Assembly: GCA_019057815.1 (NCBI GenBank)
Contig: JAHLWR010000019.1
Location: 1-64,000 of the forward strand
Source: Candidatus Heimdallarchaeota archaeon
GTDB taxonomy: Archaea > Asgardarchaeota > Heimdallarchaeia > Heimdallarchaeales > Heimdallarchaeaceae
Direction of reading: 5' to 3'
Length of the DNA stretch: 64,000 bases
Under the pieces are notes generated by a model, which was not told the DNA's origin, made no database searches, and worked only from the letters and a program-made list of their open reading frames with translations. This document shows positions 17,650-50,156 of this stretch, piece by piece. Position 1 is the first letter of the stretch. Every line of letters begins with the position of its first letter. The translations under genes were made by a program, and so were the position numbers.

Positions 17650-18522
17650 TTAGTTTCTTTTAGAGGTTGTTATTATATCTAAATAATATCGTGAAAAAAG
17701 TACTTTTAGTCCTTTAGGTAAATAGGGATCAAATGGTTTTTTTGTGGATAATAGTTCACCATTCCATTTGAAAGTGTTAGGTTTGTAAAAAAAACTTTGT
17801 TTAGTCCATTCGACATATCCATTTCTGTAAACAAAACCTTGTTTATACGGATTATAAGGACAAAGATCATTATCAGCAAGAGCAATATGCTCTAAAGCTG
17901 GACATTTAGCTAAAGGGTATAAATCTATAGTTTTTAGTTTGTTACGTTGGATGTCAATTTCGGATAAACTTGAGCATCCTTCCAGAGGTTTTAAGTCTAT
18001 GGCTCGAAGTTTATTGTTATCAAGTCTGACATACCTGAAAGAGGTACTATCAGCAATAGAAGGTAAGGTAATTTTAGTTAGTTGGTTTTCTTCAAAAAAA
18101 ATTCCCAGTAAGTTTGGGCTGTTGCTTAAAGGAGTACAATCTACACAAGTCAGTTGATTCCAATTGAGAGAGATAATTTCTAGTGTAGGGTGATTTTCAA
18201 AAGGGCTTAAATTTATGTTTGTTAATTTATTTCTTGAAAGATCGATTTTTTTTAGTTTTGGGCATTTAGCTAAAGGAGCTAGACTTATACTTGTAATTTT
18301 ATTACCTGAGAGGTCAATCTCTTCCAAATTAGGACAGTTGGCTAAAGGTCGAAGATTGATACTTTTCAAGTGATTATAAGAGAGATTCAAAGTCATTAAT
18401 TTTTTACTCTCCTTAAAACCACTAAAATCGACTCTATCCAGTTGTTTGTCATTATAATCTACATGGTAAGGATTATATCCATACTCAAATCTTTCAACTC
18501 TTTTACCTTTTATTTTTGACAA
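17650..18522 (-). CDS. Leucine-rich repeat protein, cytoplasmic
   Basis: About 8 LxxIxLxxNxLxxIxLxPL repeats; no signal peptide or TM. Confidence 0.9.
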   Translation of the reverse strand: MSKIKGKRVERFEYGYNPYHVDYNDKQLDRVDFSGFKESKKLMTLNLSYNHLKSINLRPLANCPNLEEIDLSGNKITSISLAPLAKCPKLKKIDLSRNKLTNINLSPFENHPTLEIISLNWNQLTCVDCTPLSNSPNLLGIFFEENQLTKITLPSIADSTSFRYVRLDNNKLRAIDLKPLEGCSSLSEIDIQRNKLKTIDLYPLAKCPALEHIALADNDLCPYNPYKQGFVYRNGYVEWTKQSFFYKPNTFKWNGELLSTKKPFDPYLPKGLKVLFSRYYLDIITTSKRN

Positions 18523-18928: not shown

Positions 18929-21900
18929 TCAATAAGTTTTTTTGCCAAACATTCCTCCAGCACCCCAGAAATCTACATATTTCATGATACAATGAGCCCA
19001 GTTAGTAGTATCATCATCATAATCATAATCATCTATTTTATAAGGTCCTTTATCCTGTGCATCTTCATACTTGTGTGCTTGTTCATAAGGTTTATCGAAA
19101 TTTTGTGCAGCTATGTCAAATTGTCTGAAAAGTTCAGGGGGGCGTCCATCAAAACATAAAGCTTCAGGAACAAGATAACGTAAATTTTCTACTCTATTAA
19201 AAATTTTCAAACTACTAATTGTTGGGAGAGTGTTCAAGTTTATTTCTACCTTAAAAGTTCCTGCTGTTTCTGTTTCTTTAGGTTTAATTTCTATATATCG
19301 TAAGTATCTGATGCTCCTATCCTGCTTATATTCTAATTTTTTATCTTTAATAAATGAACAATAATCGTCTAATTTTTCTACCATACCGATAAGTGCAATA
19401 GAATCGATAATCTCTCTGTCAGATAAACCTTTCAAAGATATAGCAGGCTTGTTATTATGCGGTTTTTCATGGTCGATATTTATATACATTAACTCTAATG
19501 CTTTTCTAGCAGCGTTTAAAGATTTTCCCCTTACACCATCCAAATCATTAATAAGATTTATTAAAGAGCGGTCTGTATTTTTATATTCTTCAAGATTGGT
19601 TGTAGGCCACCTTATTTCCGAATTATCGACTATCTTTCCACCTAATTTAGTAATAAGAGATTTTAAAGTATCTACATTACACTCAAATTTGTTTAGATTT
19701 ATTATAAAAGCTCTCTTTCCTCGGTCTCCTTTTTCTACGAAGAAAATTTTAATACCCGCACCACTTTCTATTATTGTCACCATCTTGTTTTTTAGTAAAG
19801 GTTTGAGATAGGCATTATTGTTAAAATGGTCGAGAACGCGTTTATATAGTATATCTCTAGCGGTTTTCCCATCTTTGGGTGTAATGTCCTTTTTTATGTT
19901 ATTAACAAAATCAACATTGTTTTTTTTGCTTATCGAATCTCTGAATTTTTGATAAAAGGAGCTGTACATTAAGTATTTAGTATAAGTTTTTGACGCATGT
20001 TCGTGTATAAGATTGACTCTATTAGCTCTGAACCTTGACGCATAAGGTCGATATTTTTGTAACATATCTTTTAAAGAAACACTAGGGTCTTTAATATCTT
20101 TATGTATATAGCGTGTATAAATATCGGTTATCAAAGAGCTTTGGAAGTAATCTATACCGTCAGCAGCGTTTGTACGATAACGCCAAGGATCAGTCTCTTT
20201 ACCTAACAGACCTTCTTTTTTAAGTCTTAAATATGCACCATCGCCACCCATAACAACCTTCCTAGCATTAGTATTTTCTTTGAAGGCATCAGTTAAGAAA
20301 TCCATATGTTTATCATAAAGACTAATAGCATCGTCAAGGTCTAATATAGATGAATCCATAACATTGCAGTGTTTGTAACCAAGATAATAAGGATTGAAAA
20401 TTGTTTCCTCCACTCCTATTTCGGTATCAATGTCAAATTTGAGTGTGGTTTTAGTATAACAGTCGATTTTAGGGGCATTATTAAGATCCTTATAGTACTC
20501 TATTGTATCCGATAGTCTTGCAATCACAGCATCAGATTTACATCTAGGATCAATACCCATGTTTTTTATGAGGAGATTGTAAATAGATTCTATCGTTTTG
20601 CTCTTAGTACCAACATCAGTTTCGCTACTTGTTATATCTTTTTTCAGTTCTTCCATCTTTTTTATAGCTAAACTAATATCCACCCATTCATAAGAGACAG
20701 AAATTTTAGTTATTCCATCCACTGTTTTAGTATCTGTTTTCAAGTAAGGAACATTGTTGGTTGTTAAAAGGGAATAAAGAAAAACTCTCTGATATCTATA
20801 GGATAAGTCATTAGGGTGTTTATCCGTTTTGTAATCACAACCCATAATCCCGCGTTTGAAGAAAAGTTTAATCATACCATCTATTTCATCTCCCTTCATA
20901 TCTCTAAGCGTCAAATAAGCCCCTTTTATAGAGTCTATTTTAACGTGATCGTAACTGAGAGGTGAGATAAGAATAGTTTTAGAAGGAGAAGGATCAACAC
21001 CTTCAGGAGCAGGGAAGTTCCTACCATCCAGATAAACCATTTCGAATAAATGAGGTTTAGTGGGGTCATTTACTGTCTCTGAGGTATATTTTATTATAGA
21101 TGTTGATAAACCGTCAGAGTCTGTTTCAATGTCTATGCCTGTACCCAAGCAGTTTTTACCTGTGTTAATCCCCTCTACCTCATCCTTATTTATGAAAACC
21201 TCTAACAAAGGTCTGGTGTATAACTTGTAATCATCATGAATTCTTTTAATATCCTCAAAGTCGACAATATAGTTACTTCTTACACCATCTTTATTGACCA
21301 CAAAACAAATAGATCTAATAGGTTTATTACCAATCTTAGGTTGAGGTACATTTACCATAAAAGCAGCTTCTATATATGTATTTTCCCCCTCAAGTTCTCC
21401 TTTAAACAGTGAGTTTTTATATGTTAGAAATGTCTTGAGTGTGTCAGTGTTAACTGAAACATGATAAACTTCATCTATATCGATTAAAGTAGTACCATCT
21501 CCATCTTTGTAACCCATATTGTGAAGTTGTCCTCTTCCTGATGCATCGATAACTTCTGCTGAAAAAACATCTTTAAGGAATACGAGGTTAACAGTTAATC
21601 CAGAGATAAGCATAATCTCGAGTTGTAGCTTTAAAGCTAGCCTTTTCGCTGTTTCGAAGTCAGTTTTTAGGCCATTACTTTTCTCGTCTATAGTTCTAGT
21701 AAAAGTATTTAACAAACGCATAAGATTAAGTTCATTAAATTCTCGTTTATAACCAGTTCCTTTTTCATATCGGATGAACTGTTCAATTTGGTCTTTAGTC
21801 ATAATATCTATACTTAGAAGTTTACCCTCACTATCTACAAAATAATTAGGGATGAATTTCCTTTTTATAAGCGTAGCGAGGGTTGACATATCCCGACCAA

Positions 21901-24900
21901 GGCTAGACTGTACGTTTGCTGATGATACAACATTCATACCTTCCCAAAGCCTATTATTCTTGAATTCCCAAGCCCCATGTTTTGTTACCATGTCAAAACC
22001 TTGGATATTAAGAATCAATTGACGGTAGTTAGTGTCATCAATTGATCTAGGGCCTTTAGGTGTTATATAGTCTATATTCATATCTATAGGCCCCCAATCT
22101 TTATCTTTGAAAGTTATACCTTTATCTGCATCATATTCTATTTGGCTCACATCGAATTTGAATATACCATTAGAAGTAGTTATAACACCAACATCATCGA
22201 CAGAATTTCTATCAGGTCCAAAAACAACAGGTAAAATAACTCCACCAGCACCCATCAACGTAAGCTGTTCTTGTAATTCTTCCCAAATTATAGCAGCTTT
22301 CTTTTTAGCACCATTACCATCGGTGGGTTTGGGATCATCTTCAGTATGTGTATTTAAACGTTTTTTAAGTTCATCGTTGGCCCATTTCATAACAAGATAA
22401 ATGTCAAATTTTGTTGCACATTCAACAAGTTCACCAACAGTCTCTTTAGGAACAGCTCTAAAACGTTTTAGAGCATCTTTGCTTACAAGTCTATCATCCA
22501 TTAAATCTTGGAAAGTTTTAAGATGTTGAATAAAAGCAGGATATTTAGTGACTGGATTACCATTCTCATCTATAGTGATTATACCTTCGGACTCTATTAT
22601 TTTCTTAGCAACAATATCAAGTTCTTTTAGAACATTCTCACCGAGAATGTTCTTAGGACTAATATTCTTATCAAGAGCCATTAAAGCGAGTATTAGAGAT
22701 GTTTGTAAGGTATTCACTTGTGAAGAGGTTCTACCTGGAACAGCATAATTGAAGAAACCATTTTTAAAACTGTCAATAGCTTTCATTTTAGCATCTATAG
22801 AGGTAACAGTAGATCCCGTGTAACGGGTATGCATTCTATCGATATGATCATTACTAATAAATGAAAAACCATATGTTAATCTAGCAATATTAAGATTGGT
22901 ATCAACACCTGTTTTTCCTGTAACGGTAGAATCAGGGGGGATAGTGTCTGTGTCTGTAAGAGAGTTTTTAACCATAACCTCACTAGATGTTACTTCATTC
23001 ATCTGCGAAAAGAAGGTTGACGGAGTGAGTATCTTAATGAAATTATCTAAACGCCCGTCTTTTTCTAGAGTAACGATTTTAGATAAACTTGTAGCGAAAA
23101 CCTCGAAAAGAGCAAAAATTGAACCTAATCGTTGTTTTTTAATTAACATCTCAAGAGATAGAATACTTGCAAGAAAGTCTGGTAGACGAGCAAAAGCTCT
23201 ATTAGATTTGATAAGAGCTTTTCCGAAAGATTTCATAAACAACTTCATTGAACCTTGGAAAGCACCCCAAGGAAGGAAAACAGTATATTCAAGATAACTC
23301 CAAGCTTGACGAAGAGACGTGTGTATATTAATTATACTCTTTTGTTTAGTAGCAAATTCAATCATTGATAGTTGGTGACCCAAAACATCATCGACTAGCT
23401 TTGCATTCCTTGAGGAGGCTTTTATGCTATTGCGAAGAAGGCTTACACGAGTGAAAATATCTACAATGTCCATAGGTATTTGGATACGTGACAATGCACG
23501 GAAGAAACTGTTTTGAACAATGATTGAATCTCGAACATCTTCATAAAGAGCTATGACTGGGAAAATGTTGCCTATCATTTCAATAGTGGTGAGAAATTCC
23601 AGTTCAGTGATACCAAATTGGATGTAAATTTGGTCTATAGAAAGTTTATAATGTTTATCGAGACTAATAAGCCACTTATAGGAATCTCCATCAGCTGTAC
23701 TTGTACCATCCCAAACAGCTATAACAAGGTAGTGATCGTCAAAACCAAGAGGTTGGATATTAGACGCCATCATTTCCTTAGTGTAAACACCTATGCTATA
23801 AGGACCATATTTGAGGAACTTACTCTTAAACCAGAGGAAGATGTTAGAGTCTCTTTCACACATGTTATAAGCTTCAGGTTGGTAATTAGGAGAAGTAACC
23901 CAATCACGCATGTTAGCCAGATCGGAATCGGTAGAATTAACAACAGCATCAGCGTATGCACTATCAGCAAAAGGCAATTTAGAATTTACATTGCTTATGG
24001 TTTTTGTGGAAAGGTGGTTAAGATAAGCGTCCCAAAGATAATCAAATTCCAAAATACTATGAGTACGGGTACATTTGTCTTTATCTAATACAGTATAAGA
24101 TTCACTTGCCTCACCAGTATAGTATGAAAGGGGTATGCCTGCTCCTTCACTGTTACCTAAAATAAGAGCCCAAAAGAACATAAAAGCGCTGTGGAATTTA
24201 ACATAAGCATAATCAGTACGTTGTTGAAGCATTTCTCCTTTATCACCACCAGTAGCACCGAGACTAAAACCTGTCATCATCCTCCAGAAGAATTTGATAA
24301 CATTCCAAGCGATACGCAAAGCTTTACTGACAAAACTCCAGATTTTATACCAAGTGCTATGAGTAGGTGAGTCCTTGAAAGGATCATAAGAACCTTGAAT
24401 AAGGTCAAAAATACCTTCCATCCAGTCGGTAAACCGGTCTTCCATACCCTTGAGATTGAAAACATCACGTAGAACACGGACATCGATATAATTTAATCCT
24501 GAAACATCTACATCTAAAAGCTTAACTTGGTCTTGGGTATTATAGTCAGCTAAATTAAGACATTGCCACTTAATTTTACCATCCTCCATATAATAACTAG
24601 AGTAATCGACAGCGTCTCCGACATCTAATTGTTCTTCTTGATTGAAACATTGGATAATAAGCTTTTCAAACCATTCAGCGAAAGAAGATTTAGTAGGATC
24701 AAAATAATCTGCGTCTTCATAAGTTCCAGAGAGAGATAAAGGAATCTCATAAGGTAGATCTATTTTAGATTGAATTGCTTGAATAGTTGCAGGGTTATCA
24801 AAAACGCCGACGTAAGTACCAGAATAATCAGGATTGTCAAGATTGTTAGAATAAATAGTGAAAGAGCCAGAGGAAGTTATATATGTTTTCTTGTATTTAT

Positions 24901-33900: not shown

Positions 33901-34621
33901 TTACAGGAGTCATTACATCAAAGAAGAAAGAGAAGTTTACTATGGGTTGCCAAGGGATATATACTCCTGGACTCTCCAAAATTATCTTGTTATCCCAAAG
34001 AGGAACTTTTATTGTTTTTGTGTAACTCCAACCATCTCCCCAATCAGTATCTGTAACCGCACCATGGTTTTCAAATGTAAAACCATCAGTTAGAAAATCA
34101 TGATAATATCTGTTGGGAGTATAAAGTTTAATTGAACCTATCGACATATAACCCGAAAGTTCTATACGCATAGAATCGATACCAGCAATGAGATATCCAG
34201 GAATTTGAATGTGGACTGTGCTTGAATCGATATTGTTTTTCGTTAGTGTGTATAGAACTCTTTTAGTGTTTCCATCTTGAAGAGTGATTGTTGATCCACT
34301 TGAAAGTTTGGTTGTAGCGATATTTTCTATTAAAAGCCAAACTTCAGAAGTTATATCACGTATGACATCAAAATTGTTAGTTATGGCAATTTGTCCATCT
34401 TTGACAACAATTTTAGAACTATATTCCCTAACATTGAAAGCACCATTCCAATTATTTCTTGAATATTCTTCATTATCGAAATCATCGATAAAGAACCATA
34501 CTTTGTTATGAGCTGAACTGGGACCGGTAGCTAGTATAGAAAACATCTGTAAAAGAAATACAGAGATTAAAATTGCAGATAAAATTTTATTTTTTGATTG
34601 TTTTTTTAACCATTCGTTCAT
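18929..34621 (-). CDS. Giant secreted protein of about 5230 aa: acidic beta-rich N-terminal two-thirds, hydrophobic hinge, Lys-rich C-terminal region
   Basis: Uninterrupted ORF; signal peptide ILSAILISVFLLQMFSILA; LamG-like motifs (EWNHISL..FILVIN..YDNIQVF); probable start ATG 34621 overlapping the upstream TAA (TAATG) with a GGAGG SD; no C-terminal anchor. Confidence 0.85.
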   Translation of the reverse strand: MNEWLKKQSKNKILSAILISVFLLQMFSILATGPSSAHNKVWFFIDDFDNEEYSRNNWNGAFNVREYSSKIVVKDGQIAITNNFDVIRDITSEVWLLIENIATTKLSSGSTITLQDGNTKRVLYTLTKNNIDSSTVHIQIPGYLIAGIDSMRIELSGYMSIGSIKLYTPNRYYHDFLTDGFTFENHGAVTDTDWGDGWSYTKTIKVPLWDNKIILESPGVYIPWQPIVNFSFFFDVMTPVSYEYETYNYTYTIKIFNLDDPEQQYGEILSSYTIYESWNYPAFNTFSLTDYCGQRLKFEFSFSSPDTRLDCTDGVDIVIYQANIFTNGYSDPVSEEFSPWEFIHSNNHAYYDITTFFGEYYPALATDREGYLATYFIENDQLRYADYLTTELIQNNYTTEDVAIFEDLELSGISVSESCEAVRKDVNVGDFYTSLVFNLSSYDIIAGISISGYRNIKVGIGRTNDKPAIFIYVNDAIDEIIFLNSDYNLLKDNTISVETTFGYNAYLITLNGEEYYYTPSLGGMAIGGNMGFFSKCSTNSKAQIIEFKSISVSGPVRRDSSRFIMLIKSQQNIKVEVTHTVFDLFGIATVESLGVKDVLANKDSYLHFKTPDLRRLEYLQISIINNDPRPLQSPVYLGPMLVLGINPFNTKINPINYFDKGVTSEMVEDTLSYSYETNTPDNFIASYDINIREPCLFEVGVLVDNILPRISIDVYTRKLFSAEPYSFQGTITWTENEEKVFGHVIFLDFSYGDYEIVLQHPHDAYENVTIHYILTRPITSSAIAHTDYTDHNLENVWQLDFNTNEAKSTTQFDVWEEDAYYTLHKPLVENILVDGVFQQLTDWDDVSNAIITPIEGNLAAFIGSVTLEDLNIPIDHSHFPYIYFEIYSTNPLNATKVTFEDNEGNQYEFTINPNNIHDNSLTKSFILANIIGEDPDGDGRVEDSSLKLVKIIFDSYQCSHPVIFKNIHVYRIKNVETFDDYNNKDYAPYISNILLTDFSPFYIERLDNPNIHNPYTSDDKLVDFLNNDDYDLSLEDLSWFLQERDGLAPLFISNTNQPWKYNKDQILESYKQDYTSRVPLLPNYLSPAATILELSFSISNLDNDARDGEVLIELDFVDTLRKKLSQGYYEYYDMGNNIHDYIYGDTVNENYNIKLKGQLFKITEDDGPFEDSIPDCKIIWSIEDTWSPNVIDNVTYSALPFDTSYIYYDNDYIITINYGRPYYGNPMIDDDDYRHNVAYSLLYDFEEKQHFNYPSTCGSFEGFTVSFGDDILLGGTKEDKNYLTNPFVDDDDLSLINYLNKYPLFTQTFLALGAAPISYDMDWTVNRKLFPNYNGEELSLLEYSEFEINTPTLTQMYKDSFSSADYLNLPIGTRIEPILNANLNISEYYLDLVYGCGRLTLETETNGWNQLFGDHTLTEVHNYIHKKLTNSTLPELNKVSFQSTKNIYINNQDWGYASTIDSLYLTFFTHTPSSYLSLDGSNAIGGDWSILDKSPYDFTSPYSIDSGPKGIQWLYDSDTKDFWEQNSFYLSCGYYGHYYNYYMHHYNEWMSFGGHGYLGELKGEPDGQAVDYILLNDDLPHRIVNYDGPIADKFLLKAEFKIDKWSSNDLPTDVLFTSGALILPGENEPEILRIKILHYGHNEDREWTIKYDTNDINNRNNEHRLEHQDITYVYIGNALLGAFPASEEIIINFEILISRDTVHEYLINIYCDSPRYNEGLNWYYYNQYYGSMQNVPFTKDIMENANVHTEYIIEGTNDKYGFEYVHPNYIPLHGDHKVAFENSAYFTDSEEYRLNNIYNDGSFGFTVGFGNDQFTYIDYIPITDSFDEEEIQELEGDYSWSGTTGMGTGYSDSLIMYPNSKFRFVDKLSGNIDITFDLDMFAMNIEDLDNSIEIGLAKVDPYSNYYYTGMKFGYSSFYNEWRSSDSVAVGEVDEDHTYYNLEVISHLSTYKNFFVRLQYDETTHIMRFWIWKWDEIIDLDNYIEVRIDTTTNNLDTTGIKPYISVGGSLLFVHSIFSNTFHYEDDEILTQLPSMNGQGELGDYYLRYNTNQMLNCTGSVNFVYSTEDGSSGPEWSMDFMPSTDFETIITNEYYNDTINEWITVGYIKITHNGVLFGNNSDLLLQITSGDIIKEHEWNHISLNYYYSPIVDIIDENNVTIREGDFILVINEDEYSFNTSVVVGSGEYRFTLSNSIGSVHYDNIQVFNYIEYFSTQKDFEDNWEITVKGGYWKISINAYTTNLYLTIIGCSIQDGLSNITIIINDNYILRDTWTQSSPFPNLEYHRYPINLNVIGNSPNNILKLRFISQGLTSVYGFSLATRESVTDILYTAETYNLEEQREWKDIISTIDPDSGDYSEVTENNAIINPVFVQDSGVIEYILDTIDVKEGLTLSGFVKGKGKIVIEEILCRGNQHIELEFTFGEKSIWYEGSATYTVDVDNHIYITASFPLTLLEDKEKWQYFEIDLYQALAHIPAYDGETSTIDNLSLKYPTRTFNFDVIKIMPNIQTLKEMVESLLFADFKYSLERSTIGEFPSSESKITIDSSEGEQTSALWKIKELGETGVIDIDTIFERAIEPNTVDNYYFMIYADSFAAETIFIEIDSDLPFTIYQSGIAIYTKSDFKRNNAFIPINVHGGTSPILFKIVRPSDNPNHLMHISYIAFGDISIGGSVFQQNEYITQWLYTQPFGSEVLHNTEGLIGLINDICPKKGDRLKTPYGNLEFNQLENDEDTFYIDFGSDIKFIPSAEDYIILYTNLYYAQDLEDAELIIQKGLDNNFGFDIKLFSIDGYQLIQNEDSIFNEVDTSSNTLTIPLLNRYAIPSVYTQGYDDYRGRLGIDLIRPRLDPGPMNWMEGDYVVRNNPYDDLTGDQDLETYYEYKLGIDSKGFHRILMLVQITDTSQPLNISIRLKNRMDKVFEILEPSPIRVNYNVVLSRLDTLMYESKPFDEVAGGTSIIDNEHVLAGGFFRDDLGGFHTYRIYFLGASDFETQLEVESYYRLDEEDEDNLGIPQIYDGGTGVPLASYVLFNMNFAIKIDEGFNNNYMNTYSITAGRWWFRTVPDVNGSYEMLTAPAAPILSEEEISQINSELGALSLTSSSSTNTACYLVGDTEIILDGLGQSRANFIYDPAIHGNFTAEGYNIDGYTLMEGDYVGDDIHQSDPEITRYLSFNEYSNQYIDLLNLDSETDSTTHYFTFTNATTDVETEIIRTVGINTEIIITANDNDFIWTLHNRYIEVIPKADADKYKKTYITSSGSFTIYSNNLDNPDYSGTYVGVFDNPATIQAIQSKIDLPYEIPLSLSGTYEDADYFDPTKSSFAEWFEKLIIQCFNQEEQLDVGDAVDYSSYYMEDGKIKWQCLNLADYNTQDQVKLLDVDVSGLNYIDVRVLRDVFNLKGMEDRFTDWMEGIFDLIQGSYDPFKDSPTHSTWYKIWSFVSKALRIAWNVIKFFWRMMTGFSLGATGGDKGEMLQQRTDYAYVKFHSAFMFFWALILGNSEGAGIPLSYYTGEASESYTVLDKDKCTRTHSILEFDYLWDAYLNHLSTKTISNVNSKLPFADSAYADAVVNSTDSDLANMRDWVTSPNYQPEAYNMCERDSNIFLWFKSKFLKYGPYSIGVYTKEMMASNIQPLGFDDHYLVIAVWDGTSTADGDSYKWLISLDKHYKLSIDQIYIQFGITELEFLTTIEMIGNIFPVIALYEDVRDSIIVQNSFFRALSRIQIPMDIVDIFTRVSLLRNSIKASSRNAKLVDDVLGHQLSMIEFATKQKSIINIHTSLRQAWSYLEYTVFLPWGAFQGSMKLFMKSFGKALIKSNRAFARLPDFLASILSLEMLIKKQRLGSIFALFEVFATSLSKIVTLEKDGRLDNFIKILTPSTFFSQMNEVTSSEVMVKNSLTDTDTIPPDSTVTGKTGVDTNLNIARLTYGFSFISNDHIDRMHTRYTGSTVTSIDAKMKAIDSFKNGFFNYAVPGRTSSQVNTLQTSLILALMALDKNISPKNILGENVLKELDIVAKKIIESEGIITIDENGNPVTKYPAFIQHLKTFQDLMDDRLVSKDALKRFRAVPKETVGELVECATKFDIYLVMKWANDELKKRLNTHTEDDPKPTDGNGAKKKAAIIWEELQEQLTLMGAGGVILPVVFGPDRNSVDDVGVITTSNGIFKFDVSQIEYDADKGITFKDKDWGPIDMNIDYITPKGPRSIDDTNYRQLILNIQGFDMVTKHGAWEFKNNRLWEGMNVVSSANVQSSLGRDMSTLATLIKRKFIPNYFVDSEGKLLSIDIMTKDQIEQFIRYEKGTGYKREFNELNLMRLLNTFTRTIDEKSNGLKTDFETAKRLALKLQLEIMLISGLTVNLVFLKDVFSAEVIDASGRGQLHNMGYKDGDGTTLIDIDEVYHVSVNTDTLKTFLTYKNSLFKGELEGENTYIEAAFMVNVPQPKIGNKPIRSICFVVNKDGVRSNYIVDFEDIKRIHDDYKLYTRPLLEVFINKDEVEGINTGKNCLGTGIDIETDSDGLSTSIIKYTSETVNDPTKPHLFEMVYLDGRNFPAPEGVDPSPSKTILISPLSYDHVKIDSIKGAYLTLRDMKGDEIDGMIKLFFKRGIMGCDYKTDKHPNDLSYRYQRVFLYSLLTTNNVPYLKTDTKTVDGITKISVSYEWVDISLAIKKMEELKKDITSSETDVGTKSKTIESIYNLLIKNMGIDPRCKSDAVIARLSDTIEYYKDLNNAPKIDCYTKTTLKFDIDTEIGVEETIFNPYYLGYKHCNVMDSSILDLDDAISLYDKHMDFLTDAFKENTNARKVVMGGDGAYLRLKKEGLLGKETDPWRYRTNAADGIDYFQSSLITDIYTRYIHKDIKDPSVSLKDMLQKYRPYASRFRANRVNLIHEHASKTYTKYLMYSSFYQKFRDSISKKNNVDFVNNIKKDITPKDGKTARDILYKRVLDHFNNNAYLKPLLKNKMVTIIESGAGIKIFFVEKGDRGKRAFIINLNKFECNVDTLKSLITKLGGKIVDNSEIRWPTTNLEEYKNTDRSLINLINDLDGVRGKSLNAARKALELMYINIDHEKPHNNKPAISLKGLSDREIIDSIALIGMVEKLDDYCSFIKDKKLEYKQDRSIRYLRYIEIKPKETETAGTFKVEINLNTLPTISSLKIFNRVENLRYLVPEALCFDGRPPELFRQFDIAAQNFDKPYEQAHKYEDAQDKGPYKIDDYDYDDDTTNWAHCIMKYVDFWGAGGMFGKKTY

Positions 34622-37600
34622 TATTTCATCCTCCAAGAGAAATTACTATTTTTTATAGATTTGAGAGAAAAGGTTTTACCTATACGAAGTTTAGATCTGA
34701 AAATAACCGAAACAATAATACAGAGAGAAAGTCCAACAATAACGACAGGTAGGACGATAGTATTATCATTAGAACCATTGTTGAGAGTGTATAGGTAGTA
34801 GATTTTACTTACAGTTTCATGACCTGAGGTATCAGAAACTTTGATCCTGAGACAGTATCCTGGAAAATCTTTGGCTTTGAAACTTACATAATATTTTCCA
34901 TCCTTAAGACGCATAGTCTTGTCTTTGTAAACTTCGAGTACTTTGTTGTCGTCTTCTCGTAAAAATTCAAGTTGAACATCGTTAACGTTCTTTTCTTTTA
35001 TTATCGCATTTACATCAATTTGATCACTAATATTTACTAGTTGTGGAATATTGACTTCTAGAATTTCAGGGTAATAGATATCCCCAATTTCGTAGTTATA
35101 AACGTCTGAACTATAGATTTTATGATAATCATTAAAAACAGAGATATAGAACTCTATTTCCTCTTTATATAGAAGATCGATTATCGCACTAGCTTTATCA
35201 AGTTCTTGTGTGTTTGAAAGTAGGGGATATTGTAGATACTCTCCGGTTGATTCTTTAATATTTAACATAACATAATAGTCTATTACAGGTAACTCAAAGG
35301 CTGTACTGAATTCATGAGTAATTTTATCGAAAGACCAATCTAATAATCGTTGCTCTTTAAGTAACCACTGAAAACCTCCTTCAGATGTGAAATATTTATA
35401 AGCTGTAGTAGTTGTTCCTCCATCCGAAGTGGCAATAATACGATAATATGTTCTAACTCCAGCAACAACCCATGCCATGACATAATCATAATGGTAGTAA
35501 GTACCACTTCCGTGTATCATAGTATTAGTTTGATGAGATTGACCGTTGACATACCATTCAACTTCTACTGTTAAGGGACTATCTGGTTCGCTAACATAAG
35601 CGTAAACTGTTACAGCTGTCCCAACTTCTGGTACTCCAGACTTTCCGTAAGAAGTTACGCTAGGTGGAGTAGTATCAAAACCTATTATGTCTACTGTTAC
35701 TGTAGAGGAGAAAACGTTATTGTTTGCCTTATCCCACCCTTTAGCTTGGAATCGCACTTGTCCTCCACCAAGATCAGTCCAAGCTCCAACATTCTTTTTC
35801 CAAGTATTAGAGTCTTCAACATCCATAGTCCCGGAATAGTAAACCCAATCACTCCAAGTACTTTCTCCTTCAGCTTTAGTCTGGTATTTTAACTGGACAT
35901 AATCCATCCCAGAAGAACCCATGCTTTCTTCACTATCTACAAAATCGAAATATAACCAGAAAGTTTCGTCTTCGTAAATAGTACTATCACTTATTGAATA
36001 AGTTTGGTAGATAGGATCTTGATAATCGTCAATTTTAATGAAGTTTTCTACAATATGAGTGCCCCAGTTATAATTAGAATCTTTAGCATCTATTTTAATA
36101 TCATACCATCTATAAGCATCACCGTTGGGTTGCCATGTAAAGGCACTAGAAGGCAAAGTCATATCAAAATTTTGATAAAGGAAAGGATGTTGTGTCATCC
36201 ATCCAAGATAAGTCCAAGTACTTGAATAATGAGGTTTGATGTATATTTTAGCACTAGCAATTTCATCAATTTCGGTTGAGTCACTGATCGTTACATAAAC
36301 TTCAAGTGTTTCGTCGTATTGTATAATATTATCTGTACCACCATTATGTGATAGTGAAACTACTTCAGGACCAGTTTCGTCAAAAATAATCTCAACTACT
36401 TGTGTAACATAGTTGAAATTTGAAGATATTGGACGATTGTCACTTGCAACCCATCGACAGTGAATAGTATCTCCAAGATTCATAGCAGAATTGGGGATAG
36501 TAGCAGAGAAAGAGTTTCCATTCTGTGTAACAGTAAGATAAGTTCGACTGTTAGGATCTGTGGTGTAATAATCAAAACTTACAGCAAGTATGTCGTAACC
36601 TGTAGATATTATTGTTGCTGAAACAGGAAGATCACCATTGTCTCCATAGTCGTCAACGATATAATAAGAAGAGATACCAGGAGCGTAATGGTCATCAATT
36701 GCTAATGTTCCACTAGTTACAGCAGAAGGATTATTTGAGTTATCATACATTTTGACTTCGTAATTGATTGTATCACCAAGATAGATTTCGTCGAAATCTT
36801 GTAAAATAAATGCTAATTCGTTATCACTATAAAATGATAAACTCTGCCAACTGCTCCAACCAACACTGTTTTCGTTTATTAATCTAATATCATCTACCAT
36901 AAATTTCGCACTGTTAGGTGAGAAATATTTACTAGCGTCGTTTGATTGTAACTGAATACGCAAAAGGTTAATATCTGTAGCATCTGTATCTGCATGGAAT
37001 GAATCAAAATAATATTCAAATTCATACCATGTATTTATTTGTGTTATAGTCCAACCAGAATACCTCCATGTATCACTTGCCCAGAAATTAGATGGGTTAG
37101 AGGCAATACCTACACTTAATCGACATGCTGTGGCACCTATTGGTAATTCTGTAATTTTAACTTTAATTTTGAATAAGTTGTATCCGCTGTTTAACATATC
37201 TATTGGACTGGTAAGATAATTATAAACTCCATAATAATAACGAGTTCCTGAACTATCTACTGTGAGTTCTAAGTTTCCTCCAGTTGATGAACGTGAAGAA
37301 TAAAAACTTGAGTCCCATCCATCTAAATCTTCATCAAAATCCCAAGGATCATTTAAGTAATTTGTCGCATAATCACTTATTTCTTTATATCTATATTCAC
37401 CACTTGAACAATAATAATCTCCTGTTGGACCATTATCAATACTTGAAACTTTTATTGTAGCCGAAGTGTCTTCAGCGTTATTGTTAATATCCACATAATC
37501 AGGAGGGTTATTCAGAGTTGGTTGGTTAGGAGCATAAAGATCTAAACTTTCAACATAGAATGTGTGACTTCCTGGGTTACCTAAAGTATCTGAAAATATC

Positions 37601-40600
37601 ACATAACATTGAATGGTATAAACATCAACATGGTCATCATCATTAATAGTTGAAGAGAAAACAACATTATCAGAGGTAGACATTGTTACATAACTTGTCC
37701 ATGCCCCACTAGGAGTTTTATGTTTGAATTGAACTGTGTTAGCATCAACTCCCGTAAGATCGTTCAGCGTTATTTCTACAGGTATTGCAACATCCCACGC
37801 ACTATCAGGAGCATTAACTGATTGAACAGTAGGTGCAACATTTTCCATAACTATGATATATATTATTTTACTACCTGCATTACCGTTATTGTCACCTACA
37901 GATATAATTACTTCTATGACATCATCAGTAACATAAGTTCCTCCTAGAATAGTTGCAGTGAAATGTGTTCCTGGACTTTCAGGTATATCAGCAAAAGACC
38001 ATGGGGGGGAATCTCCTAGAAGTTTATGTCTAACATTAACTCCATCATGTGTAAGTTGGTTGATAGTAGGATCTATTTCATCAATATCTATAGTAATCGT
38101 CCCATCGCAACTTTCTTTGAAAACAGATATACTACTGATTGTTATTATTGGTTTAACGTTATCTATAATAGTAAAATCCAAATTATAGGCGTTAACTGTT
38201 CCTCCTGAACTAGTTGCTCGTATTTCTCCGTTAATTACATACTCATAATAATATTGAGGTATTATAACTTCATATTTTCCTGTTTCATCATTAAGCGTCA
38301 TTGTGAAAGTAATAGTTCCTCCACCGTTAATAGTATATCGAAAAACTACGGAAGAAGGATCTTCACCATTAGTTGTGATAACAGTGTTTATGTATCCATT
38401 ATCTAAATATCCAACATCATCGTTTGATACATTGGGTAATATTTCAAAGAAGTCGATATCGATAGTATCTCCGTTCATTGAATACGGAGTAGAACCCTCT
38501 GTTGTATTTGTAATATATAATCGTATATAACAATAAGTTTTATCGGTGTTTAATGTAGTTGTGACAGTATGCCAATCTCCATCGTCATTAATATTGAACC
38601 AATAACTATCAGAAGTAGCTCCAAAGGGTTCAATATAAAATAATATTCTAATTCTGTTGATAGAGTTTGAAACCTTTTGAGGAATGCGGTAACGGAAAGA
38701 AAGTTGAGAATAATATTCTGTCGAGAAAGGATTGGATTGTAAGTCTACCTCTACGCACCTCCATGTACCACCAACACTTACAAGATGGATGTAGTCATTA
38801 TCTACTGTTTTTGTCATACCCATTCCGTCCCAACCTAACGAAACGTCTTCCCAATCCCACGCTTTAGAAGGTTTTAGTTCAGTCGATGAAATACTTGGAG
38901 CTATTTTGTCTGGAATGTCATAAAAGAAAATCTCGCTAGTATAGGCGTTATTTTTGTTATCATAAACAACTGTATAGTAATATAAATCTAAACCAGCATC
39001 AAGATAACTTTGAGCAATATAAGAGTCGAAATGACTTACACCATTGAATTCTAGAACAAAAGTCATTTGATGGTCAAACCATGAGATATTGTCTTGACTA
39101 TAATAAATATAGGCTCTTTCTATTCCTGAACCACCTAAATTGTCTTCTGTAGCTACTTGAACAAGATAAGATTGATCATTTCCAAGACCATTAGGAAGAT
39201 CTATATCTGCATATACTGGTGCGATTGTGTCAACAACCCATAAAATATAATGACCGCTGAGAGTTAGTAAATTACCCTGAGCATCTCTAATGAGAAAAGT
39301 TATAACTATTTGATCATTATATTCGTAGCCACCACATTCTGTAGGAGTAATAGTATAAACAAATCCTCTATATGTCTCTCCTTCAATAATATTCCAATAA
39401 GAGTCATAATCCATGTTAATAGTACCACTTTGATAACTGGTAGTTCCAGCTGATTCATCGTAAACATAATATGACATTTGGATGGTTACAGGATTACTAA
39501 ATTCATCTCTAGCTCGTAGAATAACATCGAAAGAATAACCAGGATTAATGCTCGATGGATAAATGTGGTTTATATCGTTAGAATAGACATAAGGGTCAAT
39601 CCCATCTGTAAGGTCAACTGTAACATTACTAAAAGTACCCATGTTGCCGTAAATATCAGAATACACATAATGATATGTTAGAAAACCGTCAGTGTACCAG
39701 TCTATGTCGGTATTTGTTACTGATACCCCGTATATTCCGTTGTATTCATTTCCTCCTGCAACCATGCTCATTGGGAAGTAATAACTTGTTGAAGGTTCGG
39801 TCTCTGTTCCATAAGCTACATAAATCCATAATCCCACGCCTATTGTTTCATCTATTCCCGACCAATCCTTAAGATTTATCTGGAAGTCTATATTTTGAGT
39901 ATCATAGTTGTACTCTGTGTGTGTATTTATTTCCGCTAATAGTGGCTCTTCCACGTCTTCAACCCAATAAAATTCAATTATTTCTTCTCCCTCTCCCCCA
40001 TTCCCAAGTGTATCTACAGTTATTATCTTGATAAATAGTCTAGAAATGGTATAAGGTTCATCTACTGAAGGGATATTTGAAAAAGAGAAAGTGTTTTGAT
40101 TATATATTGTACCAAATAGTATCCAGTCTGGATCCGTATTATCAATCATAGCTGAATAATGATTGCCGTCGTATAACGTATCATACCACTCATCCCAATT
40201 AGTCCAGTCTCGCATATAGTAAAAATCAGCTTGCTCAACTCCTGTAAAATCGTAAAGTGTCCCTTCAAATGTGAAGGTATCAGGACTATTGGTAGTACTA
40301 ATAAAATTTGTTAAAGTTGAATCTTGTAATTCAGGACCATAAATATCAATCATAAATTTAGATTCAGGATCATAATCGTTTCTAAAGATAAATTCTATAT
40401 CGTCTATTTCTAACCAATAGCTAGTAGAATTTACACAATTGCTTTCATAAGTTACAATTAATTTCTTAAAACTAAAAATACTTTCGGGCAAAATATCTTT
40501 AATACTGAATTCCAATGTTCTGTAATATTCATCCACAAAATAATAAGGGGTAGAAGAGTCATAGATTAAATATTCATTATCAAGAATATCATAAATTGTT

Positions 40601-42321
40601 ACAGATTTAATAATAACAGAATCAGGTTGAACATCATCGTTAAATTGTACTATCCTAGATTCAATAGTTATTTTGTCCAAATAAGAACTAGGAAGTAAAG
40701 ATGAGTATTTGTCATAAGTAAGCGTTGCTATGTCAAGGTTTGAACTATCCGGAGAGTGATCGATTTTGTATCTTCTGTATCTATCGAAAGGACTATTAAC
40801 AATAAAATAATCTTCGGCAATAGTGATTGTTTCTTTTGATATCCATTGTTCACCAAAAGAACGGATCTCGAAGGAACATGTATCCCTCCAACCGCCAACG
40901 AGTACATCCAATGAAGCTGTTAGTGTAAGTTCTGTATTGAAAGCAGGGTCTATGCTGAGATCGTAATCTGTTTTACTATGAATACGATGTACATATTCAG
41001 GATAGGAAAATGTACCAATCTCACCAAAAGTATGTAGGATTTCGTCCATCCATGAGGTAGTAATTGATGTTTCATGGACGTTTGAACCCGGTTTGTAGAC
41101 ATCATAATTGAGTTCTATATAAGAATAGCGAATATAATCTTGATAGTTAGGTGTAGTATTTTCGAAAATTCCATTCCAATAGTCTAAATACTCCCCATAA
41201 CCCTTCACTGTAGTATCTGTTTCACAGAAAGCATCAATATCCCAACTTTCTGAACGATAGTCTGTTCCCAGAGTTGGAGAGAAATAGAATTGTACTGTTG
41301 TTGTATCATTATCTTTTAAATCCAGAACCAAGTAATAATTTTCTGTAGAAAAGAAAATAGGCTCGTCAGTATCACTTTGAACAACAGTTAATACCCTTTG
41401 TGAACGAGTGTTGTACCACTTGCTAAGTGGTGCAGACATGTAATGTATAAATTCATCTACTAAATAGCCCAAAGTGTAACTAAAACTAATTGATTCAATG
41501 TAAGAGTAATTATTAGGGTCATAATACCAGTAATCATCATCTGAAAATTCATTAACTCCTAATTCAATACCAAACCAAGGATTAGTATTTTCGCCAGTAC
41601 TTGGAAAATTGGTTTGGAAGTGATATATATTATTTTGACCTATAGCGTTTTCAATTGTATAAGGGCTACGCTGATTCATCCAACTCATTAAATCATTAGG
41701 ACTGATTAAATTAAATCCTTCATTACTCCCATCACCAAAAGATATTTTATAAGTATGGTTGGCATTAAGGGTAATGTCTTGAGCACAATATAAAAACGAT
41801 TTTCCATTGAAGTCATATAGCGGAAAATCAGGTAATAATAACGTAGTATATGTTTGATGGGGCTCATCTAGGAACAAGGGATAGGCATTAGTATCATCAT
41901 AAAAGTCTGGATCTGGAGCATTATAACTAGAGTTTATCCAGTAATAATATGTATAATAATCATTGGTATTTTGCCCCATTTTAAAAGTCTTTAAACGACC
42001 TTCATTAACATAGAAACTGTCTGCTACAGAGAAATAATAAGGGTAAATATGGAAATCATAACTTGTGTAATCCCAATACCAAGATTCCCAAGTACCATCA
42101 TCTTTGTTATAATCCTGAGTTGCAGCAATGCAAAACTTTCCTTCTCCTATAGTGTCAAAATAATTTGTTGTCATATTATTTTGTGATTCAAAGTCATTAT
42201 AATAATAGTCGTCAATATAGTCATGCTCTTGAAATATAAGATTCTGAACTACATTCAGATAAATCGTTCCCAGAAAAGTCATACCTAATTTGGTAAAGTT
42301 TAAGATAATCGATTGTAGCAC
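34621..42321 (-). CDS. C-terminal part of a giant Ig-like/CBM-like repeat surface protein with C-terminal TM anchor
   Basis: Repeated D-x-x-x-P..D-x-SG..Y..D-x-x-GN Ig-like units, WDFDEDLDGW..VDDIRL lectin-like unit, TM IVLPVVIVGLSLCIIVSVIF plus basic tail; no signal peptide of its own. Confidence 0.8.
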   Translation of the reverse strand: MLQSIILNFTKLGMTFLGTIYLNVVQNLIFQEHDYIDDYYYNDFESQNNMTTNYFDTIGEGKFCIAATQDYNKDDGTWESWYWDYTSYDFHIYPYYFSVADSFYVNEGRLKTFKMGQNTNDYYTYYYWINSSYNAPDPDFYDDTNAYPLFLDEPHQTYTTLLLPDFPLYDFNGKSFLYCAQDITLNANHTYKISFGDGSNEGFNLISPNDLMSWMNQRSPYTIENAIGQNNIYHFQTNFPSTGENTNPWFGIELGVNEFSDDDYWYYDPNNYSYIESISFSYTLGYLVDEFIHYMSAPLSKWYNTRSQRVLTVVQSDTDEPIFFSTENYYLVLDLKDNDTTTVQFYFSPTLGTDYRSESWDIDAFCETDTTVKGYGEYLDYWNGIFENTTPNYQDYIRYSYIELNYDVYKPGSNVHETSITTSWMDEILHTFGEIGTFSYPEYVHRIHSKTDYDLSIDPAFNTELTLTASLDVLVGGWRDTCSFEIRSFGEQWISKETITIAEDYFIVNSPFDRYRRYKIDHSPDSSNLDIATLTYDKYSSLLPSSYLDKITIESRIVQFNDDVQPDSVIIKSVTIYDILDNEYLIYDSSTPYYFVDEYYRTLEFSIKDILPESIFSFKKLIVTYESNCVNSTSYWLEIDDIEFIFRNDYDPESKFMIDIYGPELQDSTLTNFISTTNSPDTFTFEGTLYDFTGVEQADFYYMRDWTNWDEWYDTLYDGNHYSAMIDNTDPDWILFGTIYNQNTFSFSNIPSVDEPYTISRLFIKIITVDTLGNGGEGEEIIEFYWVEDVEEPLLAEINTHTEYNYDTQNIDFQINLKDWSGIDETIGVGLWIYVAYGTETEPSTSYYFPMSMVAGGNEYNGIYGVSVTNTDIDWYTDGFLTYHYVYSDIYGNMGTFSNVTVDLTDGIDPYVYSNDINHIYPSSINPGYSFDVILRARDEFSNPVTIQMSYYVYDESAGTTSYQSGTINMDYDSYWNIIEGETYRGFVYTITPTECGGYEYNDQIVITFLIRDAQGNLLTLSGHYILWVVDTIAPVYADIDLPNGLGNDQSYLVQVATEDNLGGSGIERAYIYYSQDNISWFDHQMTFVLEFNGVSHFDSYIAQSYLDAGLDLYYYTVVYDNKNNAYTSEIFFYDIPDKIAPSISSTELKPSKAWDWEDVSLGWDGMGMTKTVDNDYIHLVSVGGTWRCVEVDLQSNPFSTEYYSQLSFRYRIPQKVSNSINRIRILFYIEPFGATSDSYWFNINDDGDWHTVTTTLNTDKTYCYIRLYITNTTEGSTPYSMNGDTIDIDFFEILPNVSNDDVGYLDNGYINTVITTNGEDPSSVVFRYTINGGGTITFTMTLNDETGKYEVIIPQYYYEYVINGEIRATSSGGTVNAYNLDFTIIDNVKPIITISSISVFKESCDGTITIDIDEIDPTINQLTHDGVNVRHKLLGDSPPWSFADIPESPGTHFTATILGGTYVTDDVIEVIISVGDNNGNAGSKIIYIIVMENVAPTVQSVNAPDSAWDVAIPVEITLNDLTGVDANTVQFKHKTPSGAWTSYVTMSTSDNVVFSSTINDDDHVDVYTIQCYVIFSDTLGNPGSHTFYVESLDLYAPNQPTLNNPPDYVDINNNAEDTSATIKVSSIDNGPTGDYYCSSGEYRYKEISDYATNYLNDPWDFDEDLDGWDSSFYSSRSSTGGNLELTVDSSGTRYYYGVYNYLTSPIDMLNSGYNLFKIKVKITELPIGATACRLSVGIASNPSNFWASDTWRYSGWTITQINTWYEFEYYFDSFHADTDATDINLLRIQLQSNDASKYFSPNSAKFMVDDIRLINENSVGWSSWQSLSFYSDNELAFILQDFDEIYLGDTINYEVKMYDNSNNPSAVTSGTLAIDDHYAPGISSYYIVDDYGDNGDLPVSATIISTGYDILAVSFDYYTTDPNSRTYLTVTQNGNSFSATIPNSAMNLGDTIHCRWVASDNRPISSNFNYVTQVVEIIFDETGPEVVSLSHNGGTDNIIQYDETLEVYVTISDSTEIDEIASAKIYIKPHYSSTWTYLGWMTQHPFLYQNFDMTLPSSAFTWQPNGDAYRWYDIKIDAKDSNYNWGTHIVENFIKIDDYQDPIYQTYSISDSTIYEDETFWLYFDFVDSEESMGSSGMDYVQLKYQTKAEGESTWSDWVYYSGTMDVEDSNTWKKNVGAWTDLGGGQVRFQAKGWDKANNNVFSSTVTVDIIGFDTTPPSVTSYGKSGVPEVGTAVTVYAYVSEPDSPLTVEVEWYVNGQSHQTNTMIHGSGTYYHYDYVMAWVVAGVRTYYRIIATSDGGTTTTAYKYFTSEGGFQWLLKEQRLLDWSFDKITHEFSTAFELPVIDYYVMLNIKESTGEYLQYPLLSNTQELDKASAIIDLLYKEEIEFYISVFNDYHKIYSSDVYNYEIGDIYYPEILEVNIPQLVNISDQIDVNAIIKEKNVNDVQLEFLREDDNKVLEVYKDKTMRLKDGKYYVSFKAKDFPGYCLRIKVSDTSGHETVSKIYYLYTLNNGSNDNTIVLPVVIVGLSLCIIVSVIFRSKLRIGKTFSLKSIKNSNFSWRMK

Positions 42322-45300
42322 AGAAATTATCGTAATATTCAGGATAAATTCTCAATTCTATTCCCCAGAATTCTTCAGGACGAGAAAGGGAAGAATAATA
42401 AGTGCCATTACTGTTTATGTCATTAATTAGAATGGACCAAACAGCGTCAGGACTATATTCATAATCTGTAAATTGAGTTGGAACTGATTCATCATACGAA
42501 TGGTCATAAGCCATATTAATATAATTTGGACCATTCCAAGCATAATAATTTAGAGCTACAACATCTATTTTACAATTTGTTACTTCTGAGAACATAATTT
42601 TGAAAAATGGCATAGCTTTTGAGAAACTTAGAGGAATACGAACTTTAATACATCTTTCTGAATTAGGTAAATCATTTACATCATAATTATACGTGTCAGA
42701 ATTTGTATAATCATCAACCTTAAAACCCTCATCATGATATCCTGGTCCATCCTCCAAATAGGGTCCATCTGTGTCTGAGATTTTAAGAAATCCATCCCTA
42801 GCTATTGCATTACTATCCCATTCACCGCATTCTGGATTATTCATATCAAAGCCTGAATAGGGGTTTTTACTCATCAAAAATTGGTTTAAAGGTTGTTTGA
42901 TAAGATAGTTGCCAAGATCATATTCACCATACTGCCCATTGCCACCGTAATAGAGAGGATTAAGTGTCCATAATTCTTGCTCTGTTTCACTCCATGATTC
43001 TCCTGTTGCATCAAATAATATATCATAAGCATCTCTTCCGTTATCAAATTCTAATTTTTCTACATTTAAAGTATATATAACTTCTTCATTTGATTTATCA
43101 AAATCATAAGCGTAAATAGCTGCAGTATGTCTTCCTACTTGATCTCCATACTCGTAGTTAGAGATACGATAAGGTGTATAAAGTAAATCGTAAAAGTGAT
43201 CCCAAGCGGGTTCAAATGTAGTGTCACACCCTGGTGGATAATCGATGTCCCACAAATCTACTCCATAACCTTCAAAATCCTCAAAGCCTTCAAGAGTACC
43301 ATCTCTCCTCCAAGTACCTGGAATCGGAGTAATACCATCATCCATATAAACTATAGCAGGAATACCATCACTAAGAATTAAGGATACATCATCATTGGGA
43401 TATTCACTGAAATCCTCAATTAATAATGCTTGTCTTGATTCAAAATGTTCGATGACTCCAACATCAAAAGTGTTTCCACCGTAGTCACCAGCTATTTTAG
43501 TAGGTAGAGTTGCTCCACTCCTACTATCAATTTGCAAATTCCAATATTCATCCATGAAATAGATGTAATAATCAATAACGTTTCCAATATCAATTTCGTT
43601 AGTATCAAAATCAAGTGTTACGTCAAAATGATAAACTGTTAACTCACCAAGAGGTTCAGTTGAAGTTAAAAATGTAGGATTAGCGTCATACGAACAGAAA
43701 TATTTCAAATCCCAAGAATAAGAGTTAGTCCAAGGTTCAAGCAACATACTATTGTAAATACCATAATAAACATACCCTTCAACATCACTTCTATCAATTA
43801 AATTGAAAGATATAGAAGCTGTAAAAGTGGGAGGAGAGAGTATTTCGACATCTACTTCCTCACTAATGAGGGGTTTATCACCATCAACAAGAGTGATTAA
43901 TAGCGATTGTTCGAGAGGATATGATTTTTCATTTACTTCATCATATACATCTACAATTACCAGTTTAAATGTCATATCCTTTTCTGGTGACCAGTAATTA
44001 TCCGAACTTGGTCTTGTAATAACAAAAGTGTAATTATAGGTATTTCCTTCATGCCAATATCTATCCCAATCGATCCTTCCAGGATAATCTTTATCTTCAA
44101 TTGTTCCTACTAAGGATATCGATTGAATCATAGAATGATCTCTAACTGTTAACCTAATTTCTATGTCTTGATTATATCTAGCATGAATGTTATCGGGTTC
44201 ATAATTTAAAACTGTAAAGGAATTTGTATCATATTCTGGTGGTGTAATATCTTGAATTATTATTGTTCTAACACTTGAAGTTATTTTATTTCCTTCTCCA
44301 TCTTCTATAATTGCGTACCAATAAAGATATCCCGCAACATAGAGGTCATAGCCATAAATTGTTAGAGAATAGTTATTATTAACTGTAGGTTCGAGTAAAA
44401 GAACGTTTTCTTCTCCTTCCCACATAGCGCTTTGAGACGTATCCAAAGGATTAGTCCAACAAATCGATACGCTTTTTATACCTGAATGTTCATCAGATAC
44501 TAAATCTACTTGTAAGTCTACTTGTGTATCAATATTTATAGTAGTGGCTGTTTCATTAACAATAAAGGTAGGCAAAACTGTTTCAGAAACAAATACAGAA
44601 TGAAGGTTTGATTGTTTAATATTATTGAATGTGTCACTTGCTGAGACATAATATTCTATTGTCATATTATAGTTGAAAGAAGTTAAAGAGAAATTATCGG
44701 GATATAAATGGTAATAGAATTCACTAGTAGTGATATTTATCATAGAAATAGGAGTTTCAGAAAATGGTTTGTCGGGATCAAAAATTTCATCATCATCAAA
44801 ATATCTATAATAAAGTAGAGGGATGTTGATTTCACTATTATCATTGACTAAACATCCAACGGGAATATATTCATCAGTAAAATCTATTCCGTAAACATCA
44901 TTTACAGATAAAGTTGGTGGAAGACCATCAACAACAGTTAAGATAAGATTACCATACTCTGATACTTTATTGGTATAAACTGTTTGACGATAATCTGTAA
45001 GCGAGAGATAACAGTCGATTGTAGTATCTTGTCCAATAGGTAGATAATTTCCGTGATAAACAGCATAATCGTTGTCGGTAGAATAACCTGTTTTTTGCAA
45101 TCTGATTTTATCTATAATTAATGTGTCAGAATCAAACAGACCACTATAACAAGTGAATTCCAGCCATATTTTTTTAGTGTTTTGAATATTAGAATTTGTA
45201 ATATTAAGGTCATGGATGTTTATAGTATTAAAGGAATTTTTTTGAAGTAACTCATCTCCTGTCCAAGCATAATCTCCTCCTATACTATCTTTTATTCCTG

Positions 45301-50152: not shown

Positions 50153-50156
50153 CTTC

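Follow-up and report, generated by a model that had tools for sequence, protein, structure and literature searches.

A candidate cell-to-cell delivery protein with an exchangeable tail at a putative aloposon-derived locus of a Heimdallarchaeal genome

The first 64,000 nucleotides of contig JAHLWR010000019.1 of a Candidatus Heimdallarchaeota archaeon (assembly GCA_019057815.1), hereafter the window, contain a 5235-codon open reading frame (ORF) at 18929-34636 on the minus strand, which was confirmed as real. This giant gene and its exchangeable tail, which would encode a nuclease-like cargo, are the subject of the present analysis. The genes around it resemble those of the aloposons, and follow each other in the order winged-helix gene (divergent), ParA-like ATPase, 183-aa ORF, membrane-anchored subtilase, an upstream giant split by a frameshift, the giant itself and a leucine-rich repeat (LRR) gene. 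They are listed in Table 1. Residues of the giant are counted from the TTG at 34636. The genome of the window is called G000, its contigs C followed by a number (the window's own contig is C7), and the sister genome G001. Three further giants of this type (4628-6010 aa) are encoded in G000.

Table 1. Features of the giant gene and of the genes surrounding it (positions in the window).
Feature	Position	Strand	Remarks
Probable start (ATG 34618) and signal-peptide-like N-terminus	34529..34618	-	residues 18-36, Kyte-Doolittle 2.44; GGAGG upstream
Predicted acidic extracellular stalk, ~3360 aa	24439..34528	-	homologous to Ca. Heimdallarchaeum aloposon giants
Hinge: amphipathic helices, conserved W..G helix, small alpha/beta domain	23606..24438	-	model pLDDT ~62-86 over residues 3558-3730
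Family-defining helical motif, E..DxxD..PxD; candidate processing/entry motif, not PT-TG	23432..23605	-	alignment; sequon avoidance begins here
Post-motif amphipathic helices and T/D/P linker	22790..23431	-	orthologue conservation up to +250 residues
Exchangeable module of the tail, residues ~3950-5235, depleted in sequons and of cytoplasm-type composition	18929..22789	-	orthologue breakpoints, composition
Candidate PD-(D/E)xK nuclease domain	21919..22429	-	E4119 (22282), D4215 (21994), E4224 (21967), K4226 (21961)
Best-conserved alpha/beta core of the window's tail family	20447..20953	-	pLDDT mostly 54-87
Terminal 509 residues	18929..20458	-	63% identical to duplicate at G000:C24, where the LRR gene was duplicated too
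Cytoplasmic LRR protein, candidate immunity factor	17650..18522	-	directly downstream of giant
Upstream twin giant, N-terminal signal and C-terminal membrane anchor; split into 1551- and 2566-aa ORFs	34621..46876	-	matches a single 4229-aa gene of Ca. H. endolithica
Membrane-anchored subtilase (S8), D/H/S motifs present; candidate processing protease	46890..49604	-	
183-aa ORF and MinD/ParA-like ATPase	49601..51053	-	
Winged-helix regulator	51316..51642	+	39% identical to counterpart upstream of PR6 aloposon

Architecture of the giant protein

The ATG at 34618, preceded by GGAGG, is a likelier start than the TTG. Residues 18-36, the signal peptide, form the sole strong hydrophobic segment of the protein. 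The acidic stalk that follows does not contain any Pfam domain, and is 23-28% identical to the giants of Ca. Heimdallarchaeum aloposons (E 1e-75 to 1e-78). The original prediction, made from the letters of the window, had described a switch from this stalk to a K/R-rich tail. Such a switch is indeed found by computation, the best division by lysine and arginine content falling at residue 3712, with 6.4% K/R before and 13.8% after it and a log-likelihood ratio of 34.7, compared to a maximum of 8.8 in 500 shuffled sequences. A comparable step is present in the three paralogous giants. However, the tail is not basic, as acidic residues balance its lysines and arginines: K+R and D+E amount to 14.1 and 14.7%, compared to 13.5 and 13.8% in 438 ORFs of the genome without transmembrane (TM) segments. 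The tail is charge-neutral and has a composition typical of cytoplasmic proteins of the same genome. The reading of its lysines as a mark of nucleic-acid binding is not supported. The compositional outlier is the acidic stalk (K+R 6.2%, D+E 15.3%).

Stalk and tail are connected by a hinge, in which the three motifs quoted in the original prediction were retrieved at residues 3429-3451 (24352-24284), 3484-3494 (24187-24155) and 3687-3705 (23578-23522). The helices described there as amphipathic and hydrophobic are present at their positions; they are amphipathic and none reaches transmembrane hydropathy: over residues 3400-3950 the 19-residue Kyte-Doolittle value does not exceed 1.57, compared to 2.44 in the signal peptide, and the hydrophobic moment of the whole protein peaks in helix 3435-3452. 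In an alignment of 16 giant sequences E3686, D3700 and D3703 are invariant, with G3494, E3678, P3721, D3723 and P3789 being nearly so, and the hinge motif is kept in all 16 although their tails fail to align between families. A profile of the hinge, run against 400 genomes of the phylum, detects giants in nine of them, which belong to a single order.

The hinge motif had loosely been likened to the pre-toxin domain PT-TG, which is a similarly short helical segment with paired aspartates ahead of a variable tail; this resemblance is closest in the giant of genome G044. However, the PT-TG model (PF14449), which did give matches in five genomes of a control search, that of Bacillus subtilis included, has no match at E<=1 in the window's genome or in the 16 hinge sequences, and the TG motif following the aspartate helix is absent from their alignment. 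Membership of PT-TG was rejected on these grounds, and the motif appears to be a family-specific one that occupies the position expected of a pre-toxin motif. The AlphaFold model of the hinge is usable for approximately residues 3558-3730 only, and Foldseek, VIA and Atlas searches with it returned no significant structural match.

An exchangeable tail that avoids glycosylation sites

In three independent orthologue pairs, sequence identity drops 250 residues past the DxxD motif (from 90 to 58%, from 84 to 36% and from 100 to 48%). The resulting cargo boundary at approximately residue 3950 (nt ~22790) had been overlooked by the original prediction, as had the published aloposon identity of the locus. 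Homologues of the window's tail start at the same place, e.g., at residue 3962 for G014. Ahead of the breakpoint synonymous divergence (dS) is 0.11-0.16, equal to that of housekeeping genes between G000 and G001 (0.11-0.14), and beyond it dS is 0.36-0.89. Non-synonymous divergence (dN) likewise increases from 0.02-0.03 to 0.14-0.30, and dN/dS from 0.15-0.19 to 0.33-0.51. Since dS and dN rise together, the pattern points to the exchange of old tail alleles, combined with relaxed or diversifying selection. Over residues 4907-5026, in the terminal part that is duplicated at C24, dN/dS is approximately 1.0-1.4. An A-biased mutator of the kind found in diversity-generating retroelements was considered as well and rejected, the substitution spectrum being unremarkable. 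Between different giant subfamilies the tails do not align at all.

Tail modules are moreover found outside the giants. The family of the window's tail comprises standalone ORFs (G005, G014 and G026), fragments at contig ends (G016 and G024), remnants (C24 and G001:C34) and copies fused to a multi-TM receptor on its cytoplasmic side (2496 aa in G000:C16, and G012). In G000 and G001 the copies fused to the receptor share 98% identity, which indicates that the fast divergence is confined to tails carried by giants. The unrelated tail of the giant on C38 displays the same pattern: C22 has a standalone copy and C23 a receptor fusion, and 17 of the 30 genomes of the archaeal family give matches. 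Orphan cassettes include those at C24, C22 and G001:C34. At C24, a copy of the window's gene at 53180 onward adjoins the last 509 tail residues (63% identity) and the LRR gene (68%), which makes this locus an internally deleted copy of that of the window.

Standalone tail genes of the C38 family, of ~900 aa (e.g., G000:C22:20924-23761), are common, with matches in 17 of the 30 genomes versus six for the hinge. The two receptors of G000 (C16:23305-30795 and C23:13389-18266) are multi-TM proteins with a signal peptide, apparently of one family, each carrying a different tail module: that of C23 belongs to the C38 family and has a textbook G-F-D-D...E-Y-K, and that of C16 belongs to the window's family, with the same layout in the G012 homologue. 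These fusions possibly constitute a family of receptor-nucleases in defence or signalling.

The tails of the giants avoid the N-glycosylation sequon, N-x-S/T. Beyond residue 3950 the window's giant has one sequon while 9.5 are expected. Across 15 giants, which are not independent but show the depletion in every subfamily, there are 21 sequons in the tails versus 144.7 expected, and 395 versus 419 in the stalks; in TM-free ORFs, the cytoplasmic control, the ratio is 0.95. Only the true sequon is depleted (0.16), with five control patterns at 0.89-1.03 and N-P-S/T being tolerated, and the loss sets in at the DxxD motif. Receptor-fused copies of the tail are neutral in this respect (8 observed for 10.7 expected and 10 for 12.1), as are two standalone tail genes (10 for 11.3 and 11 for 11.1). 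The remaining tail fragments are depleted, as expected with a recent origin from giants.

Sequons outside the membrane are glycosylated by AglB. The simplest reading of these counts would be that the tail of the giant passes AglB, has to remain unglycosylated and works in a cytoplasm. Export of the tail followed by cytoplasmic work is suggested by the avoidance of sequons together with the cytoplasm-type composition and the placement of the homologues. A type-I membrane topology of the giant, with its tail in the cytoplasm, was rejected, as sequons are then expected to be neutral and those of the giant tails are depleted.

While the original prediction had found no recognisable catalytic motif in the tail, a candidate is present in D4215, E4224 and K4226, possibly with E4119, which would make this part of the tail a candidate PD-(D/E)xK-like nuclease. 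A G-x-D...E-x-K pattern can be aligned within each of five tail families. D4215, E4224 and K4226 are kept in five of the seven lineages of the window's tail family and in PR6_5328, and all 24 divergent members of the C38 family retain E, D and K, with the ExK glutamate present in 21. Neither the giant and its tiles nor the hinge and the nuclease-like segments gave anything significant when scanned against Pfam, NCBIfam and PDB sequences. Word-index searches gave no match, and an ESM Atlas feature search no usable one. A search of 1.84 billion proteins retrieved four relatives only, all matching the terminal part of the tail. Both AlphaFold models are of low confidence (mean pLDDT 48 and 49) and yielded only generic helical matches with Foldseek, VIA and Atlas, by which the fold is neither supported nor excluded.

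Genomic setting of the locus

The aloposon giants are given no function in the text of the paper describing these elements, in which toxins are never mentioned (Wu et al., 2022, PMC8813620). The window's locus resembles the aloposons of Ca. Heimdallarchaeum endolithica PR6 and Ca. Heimdallarchaeum aukensis PM71 in its tandem giants, both homologous to the aloposon giants Otus/Ephialtes (the 5235-aa ORF on the one hand, the 1551- and 2566-aa ORFs, equalling one gene, on the other), and in its upstream genes, with 24-25% identity to the PR6 loci for ParA, 39% for the winged-helix protein and 25% for the subtilase. It differs in the frameshift of the twin, in the LRR gene downstream and in the lack of both the ~390-aa gene upstream of ParA, without any homologue in G000, and the tRNA gene downstream of the giants, which was detected neither by ARAGORN with and without introns on C7 nor by Rfam in 1-19500. 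There is no tRNA near the giants of C16 and C38 either. Moreover, the PR6 and PM71 giants match that of the window over residues 1-3804 only (E 1e-75), and their tails do not align with its tail. Because the tRNA target is missing, the locus is described here as putatively aloposon-derived rather than as a full match. In PR6 and PM71 a distance of ~30 nt separates the stop codon of the giant from the 3′ end of a tRNA gene with an intron (Asn and Gly, respectively), and the last ~30 residues of the two giants differ (L038:18355-18508, L039:18639-18769).

The region at 49682-57066 is 90.6% identical over 7.4 kb to G000:C38:178201-185600 while the giants of both loci are barely related, which indicates that the upstream module is reshuffled independently of the giants. 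A lone ParA paralogue, 60% identical to that of the window, is found at G000:C8:20965-21822, and the matching region of G001 has a 153-codon tail remnant nearby; this is possibly a decayed element site. On the other side of the giant, synteny with G001 ends at ~16870, and the gene left of this position is joined to another locus in G001. The break is marked by a dispersed repeat at 16866-17280 with GTCG-N11-CGAC, of which 23 exact copies occur genome-wide, compared to 1-3 for other spacings. Two of the 23 lie at 16866-17280, and another adjoins a gene pair on C8 that reads as IS200/IS605-like. The repeat was rejected as an aloposon end, given its 23 copies and its absence from the giants of C16, C38 and C39, and is probably derived from an insertion sequence. 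Finally, many NosD/beta-helix surface-protein genes, of a family with dozens of copies in the genome, are present at 13185-15008 and 54500-63000.

The LRR protein has no TM or signal segment. An LRR gene is located immediately downstream of five of the 12 giants for which the next gene is visible (in the window, twice in G001, in G005 and, convergently, in G044) and of the C24 orphan, while LRR genes make up well under 1% of genes.

A possible delivery system and its alternatives

With somewhat more belief than doubt, the locus can be regarded as a contact-dependent, polymorphic-toxin-like delivery system on an aloposon, in which a Sec-exported, surface-displayed carrier brings a swappable nuclease-like cargo into neighbours, with LRR immunity at some loci. 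The whole giant, starting with its signal peptide, would be exported via Sec past the N-glycosylation machinery, as the sequon avoidance suggests for the tail. It would then stay on the surface, with the membrane-anchored upstream twin as its probable tether, and its acidic stalk would reach the neighbour. The part from E..DxxD..PxD onward may be set free or unfolded, perhaps through the action of the linked subtilase, and carried across the target membrane by the amphipathic helices; the loss of sequons would follow from glycans hindering this passage. In the target cytoplasm, the PD-(D/E)xK-like domain may cut DNA or tRNA, from which the linked LRR protein would protect the producer or its kin. 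Comparison of the loci further shows that tails are swapped by recombination ~250 residues past the motif, from a pool common to orphan genes and membrane receptors.

Polymorphic toxin systems, which are known to include Tox-REase and Imm-LRR (Zhang et al., 2012, PMC3482391), likewise combine an export signal and a conserved N-terminal carrier with a motif ahead of a variable C-terminus, here exchanged at a fixed point (+250 in the three pairs), orphan cassettes, a D...ExK motif and a linked protease and LRR gene. Unlike these, the giant has no RHS, FHA or HINT domain and no hidden Markov model (HMM) match to any Tox-REase, its multi-domain tail of ~1300 aa is shared with membrane receptors, and LRR genes accompany only part of the loci. 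Compared to contact-dependent inhibition of the CdiA type, it would use archaeal Sec export and a membrane-anchored twin in place of CdiB. The original proposal of a translocation module with an intracellular effector is supported in part, by the conserved hinge, the variable cytoplasm-type cargo, the nuclease-like motif, the orphan copies, the LRR neighbour and the sequon avoidance, with translocation by the hinge being a prediction and PT-TG membership the part that was lost.

Several observations weigh against such a delivery system. Close relatives keep homologous tails instead of unrelated ones, and the tail of ~1285 aa is far above the size of typical toxin tips. The hinge of the window's copy has no transmembrane-grade helix, and the twin is interrupted near 42230 (42221-42351) by a frameshift that is either genuine or an assembly error. 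Regarding the nuclease, no tail domain was named by HMM, PDB-sequence or fold searches, no profile link exists between the window's domain and the C38 family, the glutamate is lost in two of the seven lineages, the putative catalytic strands have a pLDDT of ~30 in the tail model, and the motif pattern was drawn up after inspecting the same sequences. Seven of the 12 giants are without an adjoining LRR gene, so that the latter would be a frequent but not obligatory partner, and two LRR matches fall below the Pfam cut-off.

Three other explanations were weighed. Rather unlikely is that the delivered tail serves the mobility or invasion of the element, as a site-specific endonuclease that opens a tRNA locus or kills element-free recipients, with alleles tracking target sites instead of competitors. 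PD-(D/E)xK domains do act in mobility, as in TnsA and RLE retroelements, and the near-identical elements of PR6 and PM71, which end close to different tRNA genes, differ mainly in their tails. Moreover, no integrase or transposase is named among the shared features of aloposons (PMC8813620). However, the window's contig and the C16 and C38 giants offer no such tRNA locus, many standalone and receptor genes carry tail modules with no element around, and Sec export carries no DNA. It is quite unlikely, too, that the tail, once exported, goes back into the producing cell or into its kin as a defence or suicide effector when the stalk senses a virus or an attacker, in a large version of the receptor-effector fusions. 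That a single receptor family of G000 has two different tail modules fused to its cytoplasmic side agrees with this, as do the many giants lacking an adjoining immunity candidate, but a simple type-I topology predicts neutral sequons as in the receptor fusions, and allele exchange and co-duplication of the LRR gene better fit kin discrimination. Lastly, a non-catalytic extracellular tip for adhesion or recognition under diversifying selection, with an incidental acidic/lysine motif and glycans avoided for folding or binding, is improbable: although no database confirms the nuclease and the stalk of the window's copy is also partly sequon-poor (20 versus 36.5), homologous modules lack a signal peptide or lie behind TM segments, tail composition is that of cytoplasmic proteins, and D and K are invariant in the C38 family.

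For the polymorphic-toxin-like delivery system, a wider claim can be put forward, plausible but on balance doubtful: aloposon giants would be an unrecognised cell-to-cell delivery machine of Asgard archaea, with a Sec-exported carrier of 5000-6000 aa that has a hinge family of its own, a multi-domain nuclease cargo of ~1300 aa brought into the cytoplasm of another cell and a cargo pool also used on inward-signalling receptors, possibly aiding the spread of the element. The element itself is known, but a toxin-like reading of its giants was not found in the literature searched. Little is known about the ways in which Asgard archaea, among prokaryotes the nearest relatives of eukaryotes, antagonise or manipulate their neighbours. 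That the same module is sequon-depleted on a giant and neutral on a receptor may offer a route, from sequence alone, to effectors of archaea that are exported and then work in a cytoplasm. Now that the boundary of the cargo is fixed and candidates can be named for four catalytic residues, for the immunity protein and for the protease, the role of giants that were published without a function becomes a question that can be tested in laboratory hosts.

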